Origin: Candidatus Heimdallarchaeota archaeon B3_Heim
GTDB lineage: Archaea; Asgardarchaeota; Heimdallarchaeia; Hodarchaeales; Hodarchaeaceae
Length of the DNA: 32,000 nucleotides
Direction of reading: 5' to 3'
Assembly: GCA_003144275.1 (NCBI GenBank)
Contig: NJBF01000015.1
Coordinates: forward strand, 49,715 to 81,714
In this document: positions 10,091-24,259 of the stretch, in pieces
Position numbering within the stretch: position 1 is the stretch's first letter
Layout of the letters: each line of letters begins with the position of its first letter
Made by a program: the position numbers and the translations under genes
The notes under the pieces: model-generated
The model's input: only the letters and a program-made list of their open reading frames with translations
What the model was told of the DNA's origin: nothing
Databases searched by the model: none

Positions 10091-10417
10091 ATGAAGGAAT
10101 TTTCTCTAAAATCAATAACCAATTCAGATCGAACGCCACTTTATACATATTTACCTGGTCAAACGTTTTCATTTGCCGCGAAGTTCTCACATATACCTGA
10201 TAAATACCACTTACAAATCCTTGATCGGAAAGAAAATACTAGACTCAACAGATATGGGAAAGGTTCTGACAAAGGTATTGAATTTCAATGGCCAATTCCT
10301 AAATTACTGAGAGATAGGCATTTAGGGTTTTGGCAGATCTATATTGAATCAGACAGTGAAAATTTCCAATTATTCTTCGAAGTAAAGAATCCTGCGACGT
10401 TCTTTTCAGGAGAATAA
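10091..10417 (+). CDS. Stand-alone Ig-like (MG2-like) domain protein, paralogue of the N-terminus of the next gene
   Basis: Shares LQILD.K.N.R.NRYG.G and WPIP...RD.HLG.WQ with the N-terminus of 10433..11860. DRTPLYTYLPGQTF resembles the macroglobulin MG2 start motif. Confidence 0.75.
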   Translation: MKEFSLKSITNSDRTPLYTYLPGQTFSFAAKFSHIPDKYHLQILDRKENTRLNRYGKGSDKGIEFQWPIPKLLRDRHLGFWQIYIESDSENFQLFFEVKNPATFFSGE

Positions 10418-10432
10418 TTCGAACTTCTTCCT

Positions 10433-11860
10433 GTGTCTGTCGATATCTTTAAGTGTATAGCACTAAAGATCGTGTATGAAATGCCTACAATTTGTATCTG
10501 CTTAGCCAATGATCCAATTCTAAGTGTCTTCGCTTTTAAGCCTGGTGAAAAAATTAATATTCACGTTGCGTTTGAAAGTGAGCAGATACCAGGACGATAT
10601 CGTCTACAAATTCTAGATCATAAGAAAAATTCACGTATGAATCGATATGGAATAGGTTTAACTGACATAGTGGTTGACAACTGGCCAATCCCAGTATCTA
10701 TACGGGATGATCATCTAGGGATTTGGCAAGTTAAGGTAGACGGTATGAACAGTGTGAAAGAAGTACGATCACTTGGAGAAGAAGGCCAAAAGGGTATATC
10801 TTTTAGCCAAATTTTTTTTGTAGAAAAAACAGAAAGGGTAGAATATCCTTTACTCGGTGGAGATATAATATATCAACTTCCAGAAATTCTTCCGATAGTA
10901 GAAGAAGAAATTATTGGTATTAGTGATCCCGTTGTTTCTGTTGTCGCATTAAAGGAAGAAAAGGTCGAAATTCCCACACCAACTAGCGATTTTAAGGCTG
11001 AAATTCCTATCACAGAAGTTCGTGGTATTGGAAAGACATATACTGGTCGATTAGCCCAAATAAAAGTTATTACTGTCTCGGATTTATGGAATTACAGAGA
11101 CCGCATCAATTTAGCTGAAATTATGAGAATTAACGATAAGAGACTTGAGAAGATGCTACAGGATGCAGAACTTCTCCTTAGTGAAAAAGCTGACGAAGTA
11201 AGCAGGATTGAGGTAGAGAAAGAGCTGGAATTTGTTCCTGATGATTTAAGAATGGTTAAAGGAATCACTACCTCACATATCAACCAACTAAAGCGAATTG
11301 GTGTGAAATCAAAGACTAATTTGTTAGATTTCCAGGATATCACACTTCTCAAAGGCACGCTTCGAGTGTCAACAACTGAGCTAAGTAAAATGTTAGCCTC
11401 CATAGGTCGGATAATTGAACCTGAAAGTGTTCGAAAACAAGAACCAGTAAAACCATTGGATCAACCAGTGACTGTGCTCAAAGGGATTGGTAAGGTAACT
11501 GCAGGAAAGCTGCAATCAGTGGGGATTTTAACCGTACAAGACCTACTTAATTCATCAGTTGAAGATCTTGGTGGGTTTGCAACAAAGAAAACATATCATA
11601 AATGGAAACAAAATGCCTCACACTATGCACAATTCCCATTAACTGATGATTCAGAAGTTGATGATAAAAGTAAAATACCCGACGAACTGCTATCACTCCC
11701 AGGCATAGGCCCAAAGACTGTAGGAAAATTGCATACACTAAAAATATTTACTTTACTTGATCTTATAGTTTTTGAAGAGTCTGAACGTCTAAGGAAAGTT
11801 TTAAGGATGTCAGAGTCGCGTTTCACAGCGTTCATGGAAAAATTATCCTCTAATGGTTGA
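10433..11860 (+). CDS. MG2-like Ig domain fused to four helix-hairpin-helix modules (HhH_5/DUF4332-like)
   Basis: Four modules: EVRGIGKTYTGRL, MVKGITTSHINQL, VLKGIGKVTAGKL and SLPGIGPKTVGKL, each followed by a (G)I.T..DL-like segment. Likely start 10481. Confidence 0.8.
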   Translation: MSVDIFKCIALKIVYEMPTICICLANDPILSVFAFKPGEKINIHVAFESEQIPGRYRLQILDHKKNSRMNRYGIGLTDIVVDNWPIPVSIRDDHLGIWQVKVDGMNSVKEVRSLGEEGQKGISFSQIFFVEKTERVEYPLLGGDIIYQLPEILPIVEEEIIGISDPVVSVVALKEEKVEIPTPTSDFKAEIPITEVRGIGKTYTGRLAQIKVITVSDLWNYRDRINLAEIMRINDKRLEKMLQDAELLLSEKADEVSRIEVEKELEFVPDDLRMVKGITTSHINQLKRIGVKSKTNLLDFQDITLLKGTLRVSTTELSKMLASIGRIIEPESVRKQEPVKPLDQPVTVLKGIGKVTAGKLQSVGILTVQDLLNSSVEDLGGFATKKTYHKWKQNASHYAQFPLTDDSEVDDKSKIPDELLSLPGIGPKTVGKLHTLKIFTLLDLIVFEESERLRKVLRMSESRFTAFMEKLSSNG

Positions 11861-12127: not shown

Positions 12128-14347
12128 GTGACATCAAAATTGTCATATGACCAATATAGAAATAGTAGCAAAGATGAAAAAATTGGTGCAATAAAAACTC
12201 TTGAAAGACAGCAAAATAAGAGTGCGTTGCACGCATTATTTGAATTTGCTCTGAAAGATCAGGACAAGGATGTACGTAAAGCCGCGATAGATTCTATTGT
12301 AGTTTTAAACGATCCTGAAGCAGTCTCTGTATTACAGAGAATTCAACAAGATGATAGAGATCGTGGAGCTCGAAATAAAGCCAAAGACGGAGCTAATAAG
12401 ATTCAGCAATTTGGAAGGCCTTTAGGTGAAAGTGAATTTTCAGAAGAAGATGAAGAAAGGGCTGCTGATGATTATCGTGCTCTAGATGAATCAGAAAAAG
12501 GACAGGCCGGCTTATACGTAAAAATTCAAGAAACCCTTCAATATCGAATCGATAGAGATAATAATCTTGTAGATGAAGAAGGTGAACAAATTGACGGACT
12601 TGTTGGTACTGGAAAGCTTGAAATCGCCAATACAGGTAGTAAAGACAGGATTTGGGCGGTTGACGCGGTTTTAGAAGGTGTAGATGAGGTCACTTTCGAA
12701 GCAGACGAAGAACAGGGTACAGCAGTATTTGGTAACTCGTTTGCTCTAAAAGAATTAGATCCAAAGTCATCCAAGTATGTTCCGTTTGAGTTTCAAGTTG
12801 AAGCTCCAAAGCTAACTGTCAAAGAAGATTTTTGGGATTTAGAAAAAGAGGATTCACCTCCGCTATTCACAAGGGGTGAAGAATCTGGTATGAAATTCAC
12901 CTTACAACTGACAAACGAATTTGATTATCCTCTAAGTGATGTGGTTGTTAAAAAGTACATTTTGGATGATGCAACTAATGTAGGGGACTTTGATGCTAGT
13001 GTAGGAAAATTAAATCAAAGCTCAGATGACGATGGAAGTCATGTTCTCTGGGAAATTGAAGAAATTGAGGCTGGTGACACGGTAGAAGCAAGCTGTGTGA
13101 TGAAGGTTACGTTACCTGAAGAAGGAAATGATCCATACCTCATTGGTGATACAAAAACCACCTACAAAGTTGTAGAAAAAAGTCTTTCTGGTTTGGACAT
13201 GGATACTGTCACAGGCAGTTCATCTGTTTTTCAATTCATCTCACGTGAGGAACAAGAAGAAAATCCTGGTGATTTTGATTGTTTGTTTGAGCTAGAGAAC
13301 ACTTCTGAATTCGAAATGGATCTGAAAGAAGTTAAAATCTATGAAGGGCCTCTTGATGAAGGAAACATTCGTGTCGAGTGGCTTGGAAAAGACTTTCCTG
13401 AAGAAGAACGATCTATTGATCCTGGTGAGACTTTCTCTCTTGATCCTTGGACAATAACGGTCGAAGATGACAACATGATTCCCCAGTTTGGGAGAGAACT
13501 TGATCTAAGTGTCAAATATATCTATGATGCTGAAGTTGTTGCTGAATGTGTATTACCTGGATATGCGTTACCATTCATGGGTATTGAAGTGACAAAGACA
13601 TACGATCCTCTCGAAATACCATCATTCAGAAGAACAGAAGTCATATCTGAACAAGTCGTAAAATCAATCGGTAGTACAGAGATTATGTATCTACAGCTGC
13701 AAGAAGCTCTTCCTGAAGGTTTTGAAGGCCCTGAACGAGATCAAATAGAAGTTTTGAAAGAAGGTGAGCAGCTTGAAGACTTTAATTTTGATGTCTCTGA
13801 TGGTAGCGTTGTAATTACGATGGAACACTTGGAAGAAACAGAGTTCGGTCCTCTTGCGCAAGATGAAGAAATTCTTGTAAAATATCCAATCTACGCCACA
13901 GCTAAACCTGAAGAAGAGTTCACAGGAACGGTTACAGCGTTAGGGAATATGTATCCAGAAGTAAAACCCATTTCTGCAGAAGCTGAAGCTGGCCCTATTA
14001 CCGTCGTACATCAACGAAGAAAGCTAAAAATTGGTAAAATGGTATCTTCAACCTCCTCAGAGGAAGCTAATGAATACGAAGTAGTTCTTCGAGGTGTTAA
14101 CGATGGAACTGCAGTCATTCAAAATGTTGAAATCACAGATTTCCTACCTCAAGGGTTTGAGTTAGCAGGAGAGACCCATGAGGATCCCGAAGTTGGTTTT
14201 GAAGAACATTCTTCAGTGAATAATGGACAAGCTATGAAATGGATTTTTGAAGAAGTCCAACCAGATCAGAAAGTTGAAATTCGGTTTAAAATCAGAGCAC
14301 CTGGAGAACATGATCCTCACGAAGTTTATAGAATGCTTCTTGGGTAA
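12128..14347 (+). CDS. Acidic cytosolic protein: HEAT repeats + mu-homology-like domain + further Ig/DUF11-like beta-sandwiches (adaptin/coatomer-like)
   Basis: HEAT-like ALHALFEFALKDQDKDVRKAAIDSIVVL and AVSVLQRIQQDDRDRGARNKA. Residues ~128-365 follow the AP-mu/delta-COP strand order. C-terminal VEITDFLPQGFEL...KWIFEEVQPDQKVEIRF is DUF11-like. No signal peptide or TM is visible. The CDS itself is certain; the domain call is inference. Confidence 0.7.
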   Translation: MTSKLSYDQYRNSSKDEKIGAIKTLERQQNKSALHALFEFALKDQDKDVRKAAIDSIVVLNDPEAVSVLQRIQQDDRDRGARNKAKDGANKIQQFGRPLGESEFSEEDEERAADDYRALDESEKGQAGLYVKIQETLQYRIDRDNNLVDEEGEQIDGLVGTGKLEIANTGSKDRIWAVDAVLEGVDEVTFEADEEQGTAVFGNSFALKELDPKSSKYVPFEFQVEAPKLTVKEDFWDLEKEDSPPLFTRGEESGMKFTLQLTNEFDYPLSDVVVKKYILDDATNVGDFDASVGKLNQSSDDDGSHVLWEIEEIEAGDTVEASCVMKVTLPEEGNDPYLIGDTKTTYKVVEKSLSGLDMDTVTGSSSVFQFISREEQEENPGDFDCLFELENTSEFEMDLKEVKIYEGPLDEGNIRVEWLGKDFPEEERSIDPGETFSLDPWTITVEDDNMIPQFGRELDLSVKYIYDAEVVAECVLPGYALPFMGIEVTKTYDPLEIPSFRRTEVISEQVVKSIGSTEIMYLQLQEALPEGFEGPERDQIEVLKEGEQLEDFNFDVSDGSVVITMEHLEETEFGPLAQDEEILVKYPIYATAKPEEEFTGTVTALGNMYPEVKPISAEAEAGPITVVHQRRKLKIGKMVSSTSSEEANEYEVVLRGVNDGTAVIQNVEITDFLPQGFELAGETHEDPEVGFEEHSSVNNGQAMKWIFEEVQPDQKVEIRFKIRAPGEHDPHEVYRMLLG

Positions 14348-14483: not shown

Positions 14484-15224
14484 TTGGCTCAACCAGTAGT
14501 TTTTTCAGAGATTAAACAGCTTTTAAAAGATGAAAATGATTTACAACCCTTTATAACAGAATTAGAGCATTCGAAAAAGGCGTTATTTTTCTATTGGGCA
14601 TTGGATTCATTAGAGAATGATTTAGATAATTCAACATTAGAAAATAATAGAAATTTGTTGAAAAGTATTCAAGATAAGGTATGTGCAGCGCCAAACCTTG
14701 AATCAAGTTTGAAATCCTATTCCCCTGGTTTTGTCCTGGGTCTTCTGGAATTTAGTATTCGATCTATTGAAGCTAATATTGAAACGCATTTAGAATATCA
14801 AAATTTAGTTGCTAAGATTGAAACGTGGGTGAAAATTGGTTTTTCCAATCCAGATATGGAGAAACACTATTTAGAGACAATTCGGGGGATTCATGAAATT
14901 CGAGATTGGCAAAAGATGAAATCAGAGGAATACTATCCGATTGTGTTCCAATTAATTAATTCTTCTCGGTATCAGAGATCAGATAAGCAGATACTAAAGT
15001 TTTTACAAAAAAGAGCCAATGATGATAAGATCATATTCTATCTACTTTCACAACTCTTGAGAACTAATCCAGTACTCCATAATAAAGTATTAACTTTATG
15101 TGAAGAAAAGAGTATATCATTTGAGGAAATTAAGGAGAAACTTGTCCGTGTAATGCTCCTCTTAGGTGAGGAAACCACTGATCCTAAGGTGGGACAATAC
15201 ATCAAATTATTTCTGAAAAAGTAG
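14484..15224 (+). CDS. Hypothetical, predominantly alpha-helical protein (246 aa)
   Basis: Long ORF with a TTG start preceded by GAGG and an amphipathic helical pattern. No family recognised. Confidence 0.8.
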   Translation: MAQPVVFSEIKQLLKDENDLQPFITELEHSKKALFFYWALDSLENDLDNSTLENNRNLLKSIQDKVCAAPNLESSLKSYSPGFVLGLLEFSIRSIEANIETHLEYQNLVAKIETWVKIGFSNPDMEKHYLETIRGIHEIRDWQKMKSEEYYPIVFQLINSSRYQRSDKQILKFLQKRANDDKIIFYLLSQLLRTNPVLHNKVLTLCEEKSISFEEIKEKLVRVMLLLGEETTDPKVGQYIKLFLKK

Positions 15225-22756: not shown

Positions 22757-22924
22757 AGGAGTTCACGAATCTCATATAGTTGATAAGTCCATATAATTAT
22801 GTATTAATATAATATTAACCTAATTCCATATAAATTGGCGAATCCTTTTAAGAAAATACTTTTCAGTGAACATCATTGAAATAATAACAAATTTGTGGCT
22901 CAAGCTATAAGAGGAGTTAGTACA

Positions 22925-23464
22925 TTGCCAAAGAAGAAAGGAAAGACGGGTAAATTTGCATTTAAACTACTTCTGGTGGGGGAACCTGAAGTGGGAAAGA
23001 CTAGTTTAATTAAACGTTATGTGGATAACTTTTTTGAAGAGGGTTATCAAATCACACTAGGAGTAGATTTTTTATCAAAAACAGTAATGTTAGATGTGGA
23101 GGAAGGTAAACAGGAGTTAATATATCAGATTTGGGACGTAGCAGGGCAGAGTGGGTTTACTAACTTCCGTCATTTATACCTTAAAAAGGCTCATGGCGTT
23201 TTTCTTGTTTTTGATCTCAGCAGACCTGAAGAAACTTTCACAAAGCTTGAACGATGGCGAAGTGATGTACGGGAACAGAGTCCAAACGCCAAAATCATTG
23301 TGATTGGTAATAAAGAGGATCTTGCGGAAGGAAAAATCCCTGGTTCTAAAGAAGAAATAATAGAAAAGTTTGAAGCAGAGGAGTTTATAACAACATCGGC
23401 TAAAACAGGATCCAAGGTAGAAGCTGCGTTCGTTCAGATGGGTAAGTTGATCTTAGGAGAGTAA
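22925..23464 (+). CDS. Rab-like small GTPase (no C-terminal CC/CAAX tail)
   Basis: G1 GEPEVGKTS, G2 TLGVDF, G3 WDVAGQ, G4 NKED, G5 SAKTG, plus RabF-like IWD and LVFD elements. The TTG at 22925 after GGAG is preferred over the GTG at 22895. Confidence 0.93.
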   Translation: MPKKKGKTGKFAFKLLLVGEPEVGKTSLIKRYVDNFFEEGYQITLGVDFLSKTVMLDVEEGKQELIYQIWDVAGQSGFTNFRHLYLKKAHGVFLVFDLSRPEETFTKLERWRSDVREQSPNAKIIVIGNKEDLAEGKIPGSKEEIIEKFEAEEFITTSAKTGSKVEAAFVQMGKLILGE

Positions 23465-23470
23465 AGGACA

Positions 23471-24259
23471 ATGGTTTCTTTTAATGAACTTGAAATCTTC
23501 TTGGGTTTCTTTGTATTTACTAACAAAGGACGACCTCTAATCGCCAAGGATTTTCGTCCAAATAAAGATGCTGATGATTTCTCCCCTAAACAAATCTTCT
23601 CTCTTCTTCAATCAGCATTCGACCTTTCACAAGGATTAAAAGAAGAAAAAATTGATCCAGGACAAATATTTTATGTGGACTTTTCTTCTATGCGCATTGC
23701 TGGCATTCTCCGAAGTGAAGGATTGTTCGCACTAATTACTTCCGCTTCTGCTTCATTATTAGATATCGAATTTAAATTAAGGACTTTAATGACTTTATTT
23801 CTCGGAAGTTTCTCCTATAAATTTGGTAGAAAATCTATTAGAATAACCTCGAAAGAGAAAAAAGAATTTGACGGGGCAATTTTAACAGTCATGGCTGGAG
23901 AAAGTAGATATATGGGTGAATCCATGAAACAAGCTGTGGATGCAATTCTGGTAAAATGGATGAAGAATGAAGAAGCCATTCAGGGAGTGTGTATCTCTTC
24001 TTTCACAGGAGCTGTTATTGTGAATCGTATGGATTCAAAAATCCTTCCAGCAGCAGTTCGTGCGATTCGAGGAGCATTCGCTGCTCATCTAGAACAACCA
24101 GTATTCTTTCTTGCTGTTAGTGGGGTTTCTAATATCTTTGTCTACATCTTAGGAGAAGGGTTATTGCTACTTGTTGATGCGAACCCGAAAATTGCGCCCT
24201 CTGCTGCAATTACGACGATAGAGTCGAAAATTACTGATATCAAACAATTAATTATTTAG
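23471..24259 (+). CDS. Longin + roadblock/LC7 two-domain protein
   Basis: N-terminal GFFVFTNKGRPLIAKDF resembles the first strands of sigma-adaptin/zeta-COP longins. C-terminal LVKWMKNEEAIQGVCISSFTGAVIV...GLLLLV is roadblock-like. Starts 6 nt after the GTPase stop. Confidence 0.7.
   Translation: MVSFNELEIFLGFFVFTNKGRPLIAKDFRPNKDADDFSPKQIFSLLQSAFDLSQGLKEEKIDPGQIFYVDFSSMRIAGILRSEGLFALITSASASLLDIEFKLRTLMTLFLGSFSYKFGRKSIRITSKEKKEFDGAILTVMAGESRYMGESMKQAVDAILVKWMKNEEAIQGVCISSFTGAVIVNRMDSKILPAAVRAIRGAFAAHLEQPVFFLAVSGVSNIFVYILGEGLLLLVDANPKIAPSAAITTIESKITDIKQLII

Follow-up and report, generated by a model that had tools for sequence, protein, structure and literature searches.

Does a soluble archaeal protein contain the mu-homology domain (MHD) known from eukaryotes, or only immunoglobulin (Ig)-like domains that resemble it? 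The question is raised by a gene in a 32,000-nucleotide stretch of Candidatus Heimdallarchaeota archaeon B3_Heim (assembly GCA_003144275.1, contig NJBF01000015.1, forward-strand positions 49,715 to 81,714), which we call the window and which has a GC content of ~36%. AP complexes, COPI, TSET, muniscins and stonins recognize cargo and partners through their MHDs. The gene is a single open reading frame (ORF) at 12128–14347 (+) that has a GTG start and encodes 739 amino acids (aa), as given by the ORF list and its translation. An earlier note on this DNA had aligned part of the protein by eye with MHDs and proposed such a domain at 12509–13250, which is in-frame aa 128–374. We find that the predicted structure supports an MHD-like domain here. 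Residues ~124–478 probably adopt a true MHD fold, with a sandwich B inserted into a sandwich A. We hold this view with moderate confidence, as part of a broader explanation in which the protein is a stand-alone scaffold. That the module is homologous to eukaryotic MHDs we consider very likely.

The predicted fold carries this conclusion. A domain-only AlphaFold model of aa 118–380, built from a 70-sequence alignment (predicted local distance difference test score, pLDDT, 90.3; predicted template-modelling score, pTM, 0.82), was searched with VIA-align (hereafter VIA) against 48,161 PDB representatives without a Foldseek pre-filter. The ten best matches were all MHDs, with Z scores of 16.0 to 11.9 and 200 to 216 residues aligned over model residues 6–252. 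The highest was mu4 (4mdr_A; Z 16.0, root-mean-square deviation [rmsd] 2.4 Å, 203 residues aligned), followed by mu2 (15.7), a mu2-FCHO2 chimera (14.9), mu1 (14.8), mu3 (14.5), bovine delta-COP (14.3), the AP2 core (14.0), SGIP1 (12.9), Syp1 (12.6) and yeast delta-COP (11.9). After a gap came a class of single sandwiches (Z of at most 10.6) that aligned with subdomain B only, over ~100–115 residues (model 109–234). Among these were Mfa5, the CLIPPER domain 9ifr_A (Z 10.4), pilins, macroglobulin MG domains and cohesins. Foldseek likewise returned MHDs for all of its best 50 PDB matches (E values from 2.5e-9; template-modelling [TM] scores up to 0.68), and searches of Swiss-Prot and of the AFDB clusters were concordant. 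The arrangement that the earlier note had named as fatal to its proposal, independent DUF11/CARDB Ig domains with no interleaving, is not what the predicted structure contains. The models thus speak against an array of independent Ig domains: ten MHDs head an unfiltered search, and single sandwiches fall well below them. The note's opposition of DUF11 to MHD nevertheless holds in part only: the interleaved MHD arrangement is there, yet subdomain B is itself DUF11/CLIPPER-like.

The full-length AlphaFold2 model (mean pLDDT 86.4) extended these matches. Against mu2 (6bnt_A), 237 of 250 residues were aligned at Z 17.4 and an rmsd of 3.2 Å, with model residues 125–478 corresponding to mu2 169–435. 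Against mu4 (residues 185–453), Z was 17.1 and the rmsd 2.2 Å, and model residue 478 again fell at the end of the alignment, at mu4 453. In the ESM Atlas, an independent ESMFold model aligned with eukaryotic mu clusters over 125–478/480 (235–240 residues; TM 0.56–0.63), and bacterial DUF11/CARDB clusters reached a TM score of 0.37 at most.

These alignments also correct the boundaries of the module. The region proposed by the earlier note does lie within the MHD-like module, but it ends too early: with the full-length model, matches to MHDs begin at aa 124/125, extend to aa 478 (nucleotide 13561) and finish at the last residue of their targets. The first part of subdomain A comprises aa 124–225 (12497–12802, +), where VIA alignments begin at model 124/125, equivalent to mu2 168/169, and where a profile of this subdomain, described below, finds its match. 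Residues conserved across the family in subdomain A are E135, G162 and N168, together with a D-R-I-W motif at aa 173–176. Subdomain B, a DUF11/CLIPPER-type sandwich inserted into A, spans aa 226–351 (12803–13180, +), as delimited by the single-domain VIA matches and by Pfam DUF11 matches in relatives. It is followed by strands that return to subdomain A and carry an S-G-L motif (aa 352–375; 13181–13252, +). The SGL strand aligns with the mu2/mu3 strand that makes the same return, and HMMER alignment to AP-3 mu covers this segment, as does the domain-model alignment reaching mu2 412.

Only ~237 residues are aligned inside the 355-residue span, and the domain-only model stops at mu2 residue 412. 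From these two observations we infer an extra beta domain of ~80 aa, at aa ~376–454 (13253–13489, +), nested ahead of a final hairpin. This domain is conserved in the family, with N391 invariant and S393 and P452 nearly so. The final beta hairpin (aa 455–478; 13490–13561, +) would stand where mu2 has its last strands and complete the module. AlphaFold2 places its strands at 455–462 and 464–476, and its end is aligned with the C-terminal strands of mu2 (model 478 matching mu2 435) and mu4. The exact strand pairing is suggested by the alignment ranges in the model. Residues 118–480 thus offer a defined construct for structural and ligand-binding work.

Sequence comparisons point the same way, with signals for an MHD that are weak yet mutually consistent. 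The motifs quoted in the earlier note are real and occur in the order given: GLYVKIQETLQYRIDRDNNL at aa 128–147, TGKLEIAN at 161–168, PKLTVKE at 227–233, MKFTLQLTNEF at 255–265, DVVVKKYI at 271–278, HVLWEIEEIEAG at 305–316 and YKVVEKSLSGLDMDTV at 346–361. A profile of the 70-sequence domain alignment (A3), which includes sequences down to ~16% identity, gave 25 matches among 177,635 PDB sequences. MHDs made up 23 of these, including AP-3 mu (E 0.0048), AP-2 and AP-1 mu (0.04) and delta-COP (0.33). In the alignments to AP-3, AP-2 and AP-1 mu, the matched stretch begins at the W-containing strand and ends at the S-G-L motif, reproducing the match made by eye over the same strands. For a profile of the first 111 residues of the domain alone (A4, subdomain A), the best PDB match was the MHD of yeast delta-COP (E 0.041), in an alignment at the very beginning of the delta-COP domain; the by-eye likeness of the first strands to delta-COP was thereby recovered by HMMER. 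It took the 70-sequence profile to recover MHDs: in the PDB, the profile of the whole protein (A1) retrieved HEAT proteins only, and that of the close orthologues (A2) retrieved nothing of relevance.

Pfam gives a graded picture. The Adap_comp_sub model (PF00928; cut-off 31.6 bits, profile length 259) picks up 22 of the 38 orthologues (E up to 1) and 24 of 56 diverse members of the family, with scores below or near the cut-off in both sets. The best orthologue, P0031, scores 32.2 bits (E 9.3e-8; residues 157–354 on profile 40–233), and P0028 aligns over residues 124–350 to profile positions 15–231. The muniscin model PF10291 matches three of the 38 orthologues. A PF00928 search of the genome gave no credible match, so this model cannot detect the 739-aa protein directly.

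Part of the Pfam signal has another source. A search of 1.84 billion representatives with the A2 profile matched 462 proteins, and ~96 of the best 150 cover the whole profile. Giant proteins of 2,000–6,700 aa match positions ~120–215 only, and do so repeatedly; these are bacterial DUF11 adhesins, whose repeats correspond only to ~aa 250–330 of the 739-aa protein. PF00928 itself scores such adhesins above its cut-off: P0064, with 16 DUF11 repeats and an LPXTG anchor, reaches 46.8 bits on profile 126–204, and P0145 reaches 42.2 bits. Both scores are sums of weak matches across DUF11 repeats. The Alpha_adaptinC2 model also scores 25 bits on these two repeat adhesins. Conversely, Pfam DUF11 lies above its cut-off on subdomain B of several relatives (P0070, 227–319, 33.6 bits; P0159, 261–346, 47.4 bits; P0050, 72–147), and it is in relatives only that subdomain B reaches this level. 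Given these reciprocal scores and the significant DUF11 matches within the family, subdomain B is a DUF11/CLIPPER-type domain. PF00928 matches confined to profile ~120–235 are therefore by themselves no proof of an MHD, and adaptor-domain calls in prokaryotes that rest on Pfam can be DUF11 cross-matches.

This cross-matching lends some substance to a different reading, in which the module is a nested assembly of CLIPPER/CARDB-type Ig domains that serves as a rigid spacer, is neither ancestor nor homologue of the MHD, and resembles it only through a shared type of sandwich. Besides the DUF11 character of subdomain B, a short strand-N-x-G/S turn motif, read from the sequence, recurs in all five beta domains, and the family occurs outside Asgard archaea, in Thermoplasmatota. 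A further point in its favor is a Foldseek match of the domain model to Swiss-Prot Q58788 (MJ1393 of Methanocaldococcus jannaschii; E 7.9e-8, TM by query 0.58). That match spans residues 17–293 at an rmsd of 8 Å, and MJ1393 may be a further non-Asgard archaeal MHD-like arrangement or merely tandem Ig domains. However, the ten MHD structures match the module as a whole, at Z 12–16, well above every tandem- or single-Ig protein in the PDB, and the bacterial DUF11/CARDB proteins stay at the low TM scores given above. Weak sequence similarity to MHDs is also found outside subdomain B, in the first strands and in the SGL return strand. We therefore regard a mere Ig assembly as rather unlikely and favor an MHD-type module.

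The protein as a whole is soluble, modular and very acidic (163 D+E against 72 K+R), and we found no hydrophobic or transmembrane segment and no signal-like N-terminus (maximum KD19 1.44). Pfam recognizes HEAT_2 and DUF11 only. The N-terminal part is a HEAT-like alpha-solenoid of six helices (aa 7–95; 12146–12412, +), identified by HEAT_2 (PF13646; aa 11–85, 42.8 bits against a cut-off of 27.7), by profile matches to alphaRep/HEAT chains of the PDB, and by the helices of the AlphaFold2 model. An acidic linker with one short helix follows (aa 96–123; 12413–12496, +), where model confidence is lowest (pLDDT 58–78 in blocks 100–130). Beyond the MHD-like module lies a pilin-type Ig domain (aa 483–628; 13574–14011, +), for which VIA with the full-length model matched Sgo0707 (4igb_A; Z 15.4, rmsd 2.3 Å, 132 residues aligned), with further matches to SpaD, BcpA and EbpB. 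The C-terminal DUF11/CLIPPER domain (PF01345; aa 633–723; 14024–14296, +) scores 35.5 bits against a cut-off of 24.6 and is found in 53 of 56 diverse family members. A short C-terminal helix (aa 730–738; 14315–14341, +), predicted by AlphaFold2, belongs to a tail pattern conserved across the family. The tail at 14324–14344 (aa 733–739) ends Y-R-M-L-L-G and formally contains a YxxPhi motif. We rejected Y-R-M-L (aa 734–737) as an internal YxxPhi ligand: it is confined to close relatives, and the wider family has a different conserved sequence after a G-x-G-x-Y motif.

Pilin-type and CLIPPER domains usually belong to secreted or surface adhesin-like proteins, and the C-terminal domains do match pilins and a fibrillar-adhesin CLIPPER domain; a preprint (bioRxiv 10.1101/2025.04.25.650565) describes CLIPPER as an isopeptide domain that is extracellular. 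A secreted adhesin would, however, sit poorly with an N-terminal HEAT domain and with the lack of a signal peptide or transmembrane segment in the protein and in the distant relatives examined. It would also sit poorly with the proline-rich N-termini and C-terminal zinc ribbon of the Thermoplasmatota relatives, which are features of cytosolic proteins. We consider a secreted or surface location extremely unlikely. Judged from its sequence, with a HEAT domain and no membrane-spanning or signal segment, the protein is probably cytosolic.

The family is widespread. With the A3 profile, we detected it in 349 of the 400 Asgard genomes searched, and in 80 of 85 genera, a breadth that counted in favor of the stand-alone scaffold; among high-quality genomes it occurs in 77 of 90. 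Genomes of this genus carry one copy, and those elsewhere in the phylum up to six. The closest database proteins (729–750 aa, 59–97% identity) come from metagenome-assembled genomes (MAGs) of Hodarchaeales/Heimdallarchaeia and are annotated 'HEAT repeat domain-containing protein'. A second tier, from Promethearchaeota, has 23–26% identity. Among the 38 close homologues, 34 have HEAT_2, compared with just 5 of the 56 diverse representatives; two of these 56 have TPR at the N-terminus, and others have low-complexity sequence or other domains.

Nor is the family confined to Asgard archaea, because it also occurs in marine Marine Group II (MG-II) Thermoplasmatota. P0159 and its relatives come from MAGs of Thalassarchaeaceae and other Thermoplasmatota. 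A core profile built from close relatives (aa 118–628) matches P0159 in a single stretch of 168 bits, equivalent to aa 148–602, and the ESM Atlas comparison gave a Thermoplasmatota cluster at a TM score of 0.77. Six homologues of this type (P0159, P0223, P0190, P0202, P0184 and P0177) have the same core of MHD-like module and pilin-type Ig domain. They are very acidic and carry long N-terminal proline-rich repeats of the PPAPPGMPP type; most also have a C-terminal CxxC...CxxC zinc ribbon. No transmembrane segment was found in these MG-II/Thermoplasmatota-type homologues.

We also examined whether the genome, which is 3.95 Mb in size, 94% complete and has one copy of the family, encodes partners of a vesicle coat. 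The longin model Clat_adaptor_s (PF01217) matched neither the protein nor the genome at E up to 1, and it did not feature in the 25 most frequent Pfam families when 56 diverse members of the family were scanned. Adaptin_N (PF01602) gave no genome match at E up to 1, although divergent solenoids could escape this model. As both the longin domain and partner adaptins are missing, a stand-alone mode is favored over that of a mu subunit.

In Hodarchaeales, the gene lies in a conserved order: eIF-1A, an MFS gene, a helix-hairpin-helix (HhH) protein, the HEAT-MHD gene, a ~250-aa protein without a known family, and a nucleoside deoxyribosyltransferase. This tight synteny is restricted to Hodarchaeales. 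In the window, the upstream genes are a 108-aa ORF (10091–10417, +), with a 100-aa counterpart at the Hodarchaeum mangrovi locus (L005), and a 475-aa protein with several HhH motifs (10433–11860, +), which is kept directly upstream in two other Hodarchaeales loci (L004 and L005). Downstream of the gene is a 246-aa ORF (14484–15224, +) that has no Pfam match and shares 33–42% identity with its equivalents at two Hodarchaeales loci. At 22895–23464 (+), 8.5 kb downstream of the gene, lies the ORF of a Ras/Roc/Arf-like small GTPase (PF00071, E 2e-37), and 6 nucleotides beyond it a 262-aa ORF without a Pfam match (23471–24259, +).

An alpha-solenoid and an MHD in one chain, with a Ras/Arf-like GTPase 8.5 kb away, could be taken for the medium subunit of an AP/COPI-like coat, or its single-chain equivalent (a 'protocoatomer'), with the HEAT part as adaptin trunk and the nearby GTPase, longin and DENN-like genes as its associates. 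Several results make this reading very unlikely. The HEAT part has only ~90 aa and is of the PBS-lyase type (HEAT_2) rather than Adaptin_N, and just 5 of the 56 diverse family members carry it, the others having unrelated N-termini or TPR. The protein has no longin domain, and the searches for PF01217 and PF01602 found no counterpart in the genome at E up to 1. Finally, the GTPase pair does not adjoin the orthologous gene block in Hodarchaeum mangrovi, where the gene after the 876-aa neighbor encodes a CoA-binding protein.

We therefore favor a soluble single-chain scaffold, in which three HEAT-like repeats and an acidic linker precede the MHD-like module, with the pilin-type Ig domain, CLIPPER and the C-terminal helix after it. 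The MHD surface would bind a partner protein or short linear motifs, and further partners could be recruited through the HEAT repeats and the C-terminal tail. By analogy, its most likely mode is that of the eukaryotic stand-alone MHD proteins of the muniscin/stonin type, not that of an AP mu subunit. Any link of the protein to membranes is tentative, and we lean against assuming one.

Several observations weigh against this interpretation. PF00928 does not match the B3_Heim protein itself (P0001) even at E 10, and the sequence signal of the family comes largely from the DUF11-like subdomain B, where the same model also scores bacterial DUF11 adhesins. Every structure used is a prediction, and the strand pairing of the nested domain derives from alignment ranges. 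The two kinds of C-terminal domain are characteristic of adhesins outside the cell. Because the family has members in MG-II Thermoplasmatota, it is not bound to trafficking parts specific to Asgard archaea. There is no conserved neighboring partner: the downstream genes of distant relatives (LRR-like and other) are unrelated to the 246-aa ORF, and, with synteny limited to Hodarchaeales, no partner or function can be drawn from the neighbors. The YxxPhi tyrosine pocket of mu2, which comprises F174, D176, K203, W421 and R423, is probably not conserved. F174 and D176 correspond to Y130 and K132, both variable in the family, in a mapping that covers these two positions by alignment offset (125 to 169) rather than by residue-level superposition.

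The origin of the MHD bears on the rise of vesicle coats. The eukaryotic MHD might descend from this archaeal cytosolic module, which would already have been a stand-alone adaptor before eukaryotes. In such a history, the module would have arisen by insertion of a CLIPPER/DUF11 sandwich into another sandwich, and eukaryotes would have retained A and B but not the third, nested domain. In Asgard archaea and MG-II Thermoplasmatota, it would already act as a hub for linear motifs or cargo, joined to HEAT, TPR, proline-rich arms or zinc ribbons. An adaptor would then have worked before AP/COPI heterotetramers existed. Taken together, these propositions are doubtful, and we offer them as a possibility.

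Members of this family were already listed as candidates in 2023, and the earlier note's caution about novelty was justified. Supplementary Table 3 of Eme et al. 2023 (PMC10307638) gives 44 PF00928 (Adap_comp_sub) candidates in Asgard archaea. Among 36 of these 44 rows, most plainly belong to the family described here (Loki-, Hel-, Hermod- and Jordarchaeia), with motifs and domain order in common; a few look like unrelated proteins, and the Hodarchaeales HEAT fusion does not appear. In that paper, the distribution of Adap_comp_sub is described as sparse, and Hodarchaeales is the order placed closest to eukaryotes. The candidates there are Pfam calls without a structural test, whereas the present analysis tests the predicted fold. 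For the Hodarchaeales protein, a Pfam-level candidate list thus becomes an assignment tested by structure prediction. The new points are that the family is near-universal in Asgard archaea rather than sparse, that it is present in Thermoplasmatota, the warning about Pfam cross-matches, and the corrected boundaries. Our literature search found no dedicated study of Asgard archaea with MHD, muniscin, TSET or delta-COP, no Asgard MHD structure, and no study linking CLIPPER and MHD. Later (2026) structure-based surveys of eukaryotic signature proteins touch on adaptors merely in passing.

Among known systems, CLIPPER/DUF11 domains (PF01345; PDB 9IFR) share fold and sequence pattern with subdomain B and with the C-terminal domain. 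They are tandem modules of extracellular stalks, whereas the archaeal protein, which is probably cytosolic, has one copy nested inside another sandwich. The mu MHDs of AP-1 to AP-4 (PF00928; mu2 1BXX/6BNT, mu4 4MDR) have the same two-sandwich fold with B in A as the one predicted here (Z 16–17), and 203–237 residues are aligned through the C-terminus at 8–12% identity, with weak reciprocal profile similarity. Eukaryotic MHDs are without the ~80-aa nested domain of the archaeal module. Unlike AP mu, the archaeal protein lacks a longin domain, has no detected partner adaptins and continues into two further Ig-like domains; where the medium subunits of AP complexes and delta-COP have longin at the N-terminus, it has HEAT_2. 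Delta-COP (4O8Q, 5FJW), the muniscins Syp1, FCHo and SGIP1, and the stonins also have this fold (VIA Z 14.3 and 11.9 for delta-COP, 12.9 for SGIP1 and 12.6 for Syp1), and delta-COP adds the sequence match in the first strands. The muniscins and stonins are like the archaeal protein in a further respect: they attach the MHD to N-terminal modules unrelated to it and do not build it into a heterotetramer, although the partner domain in the archaeal protein is HEAT_2 instead of F-BAR or longin.

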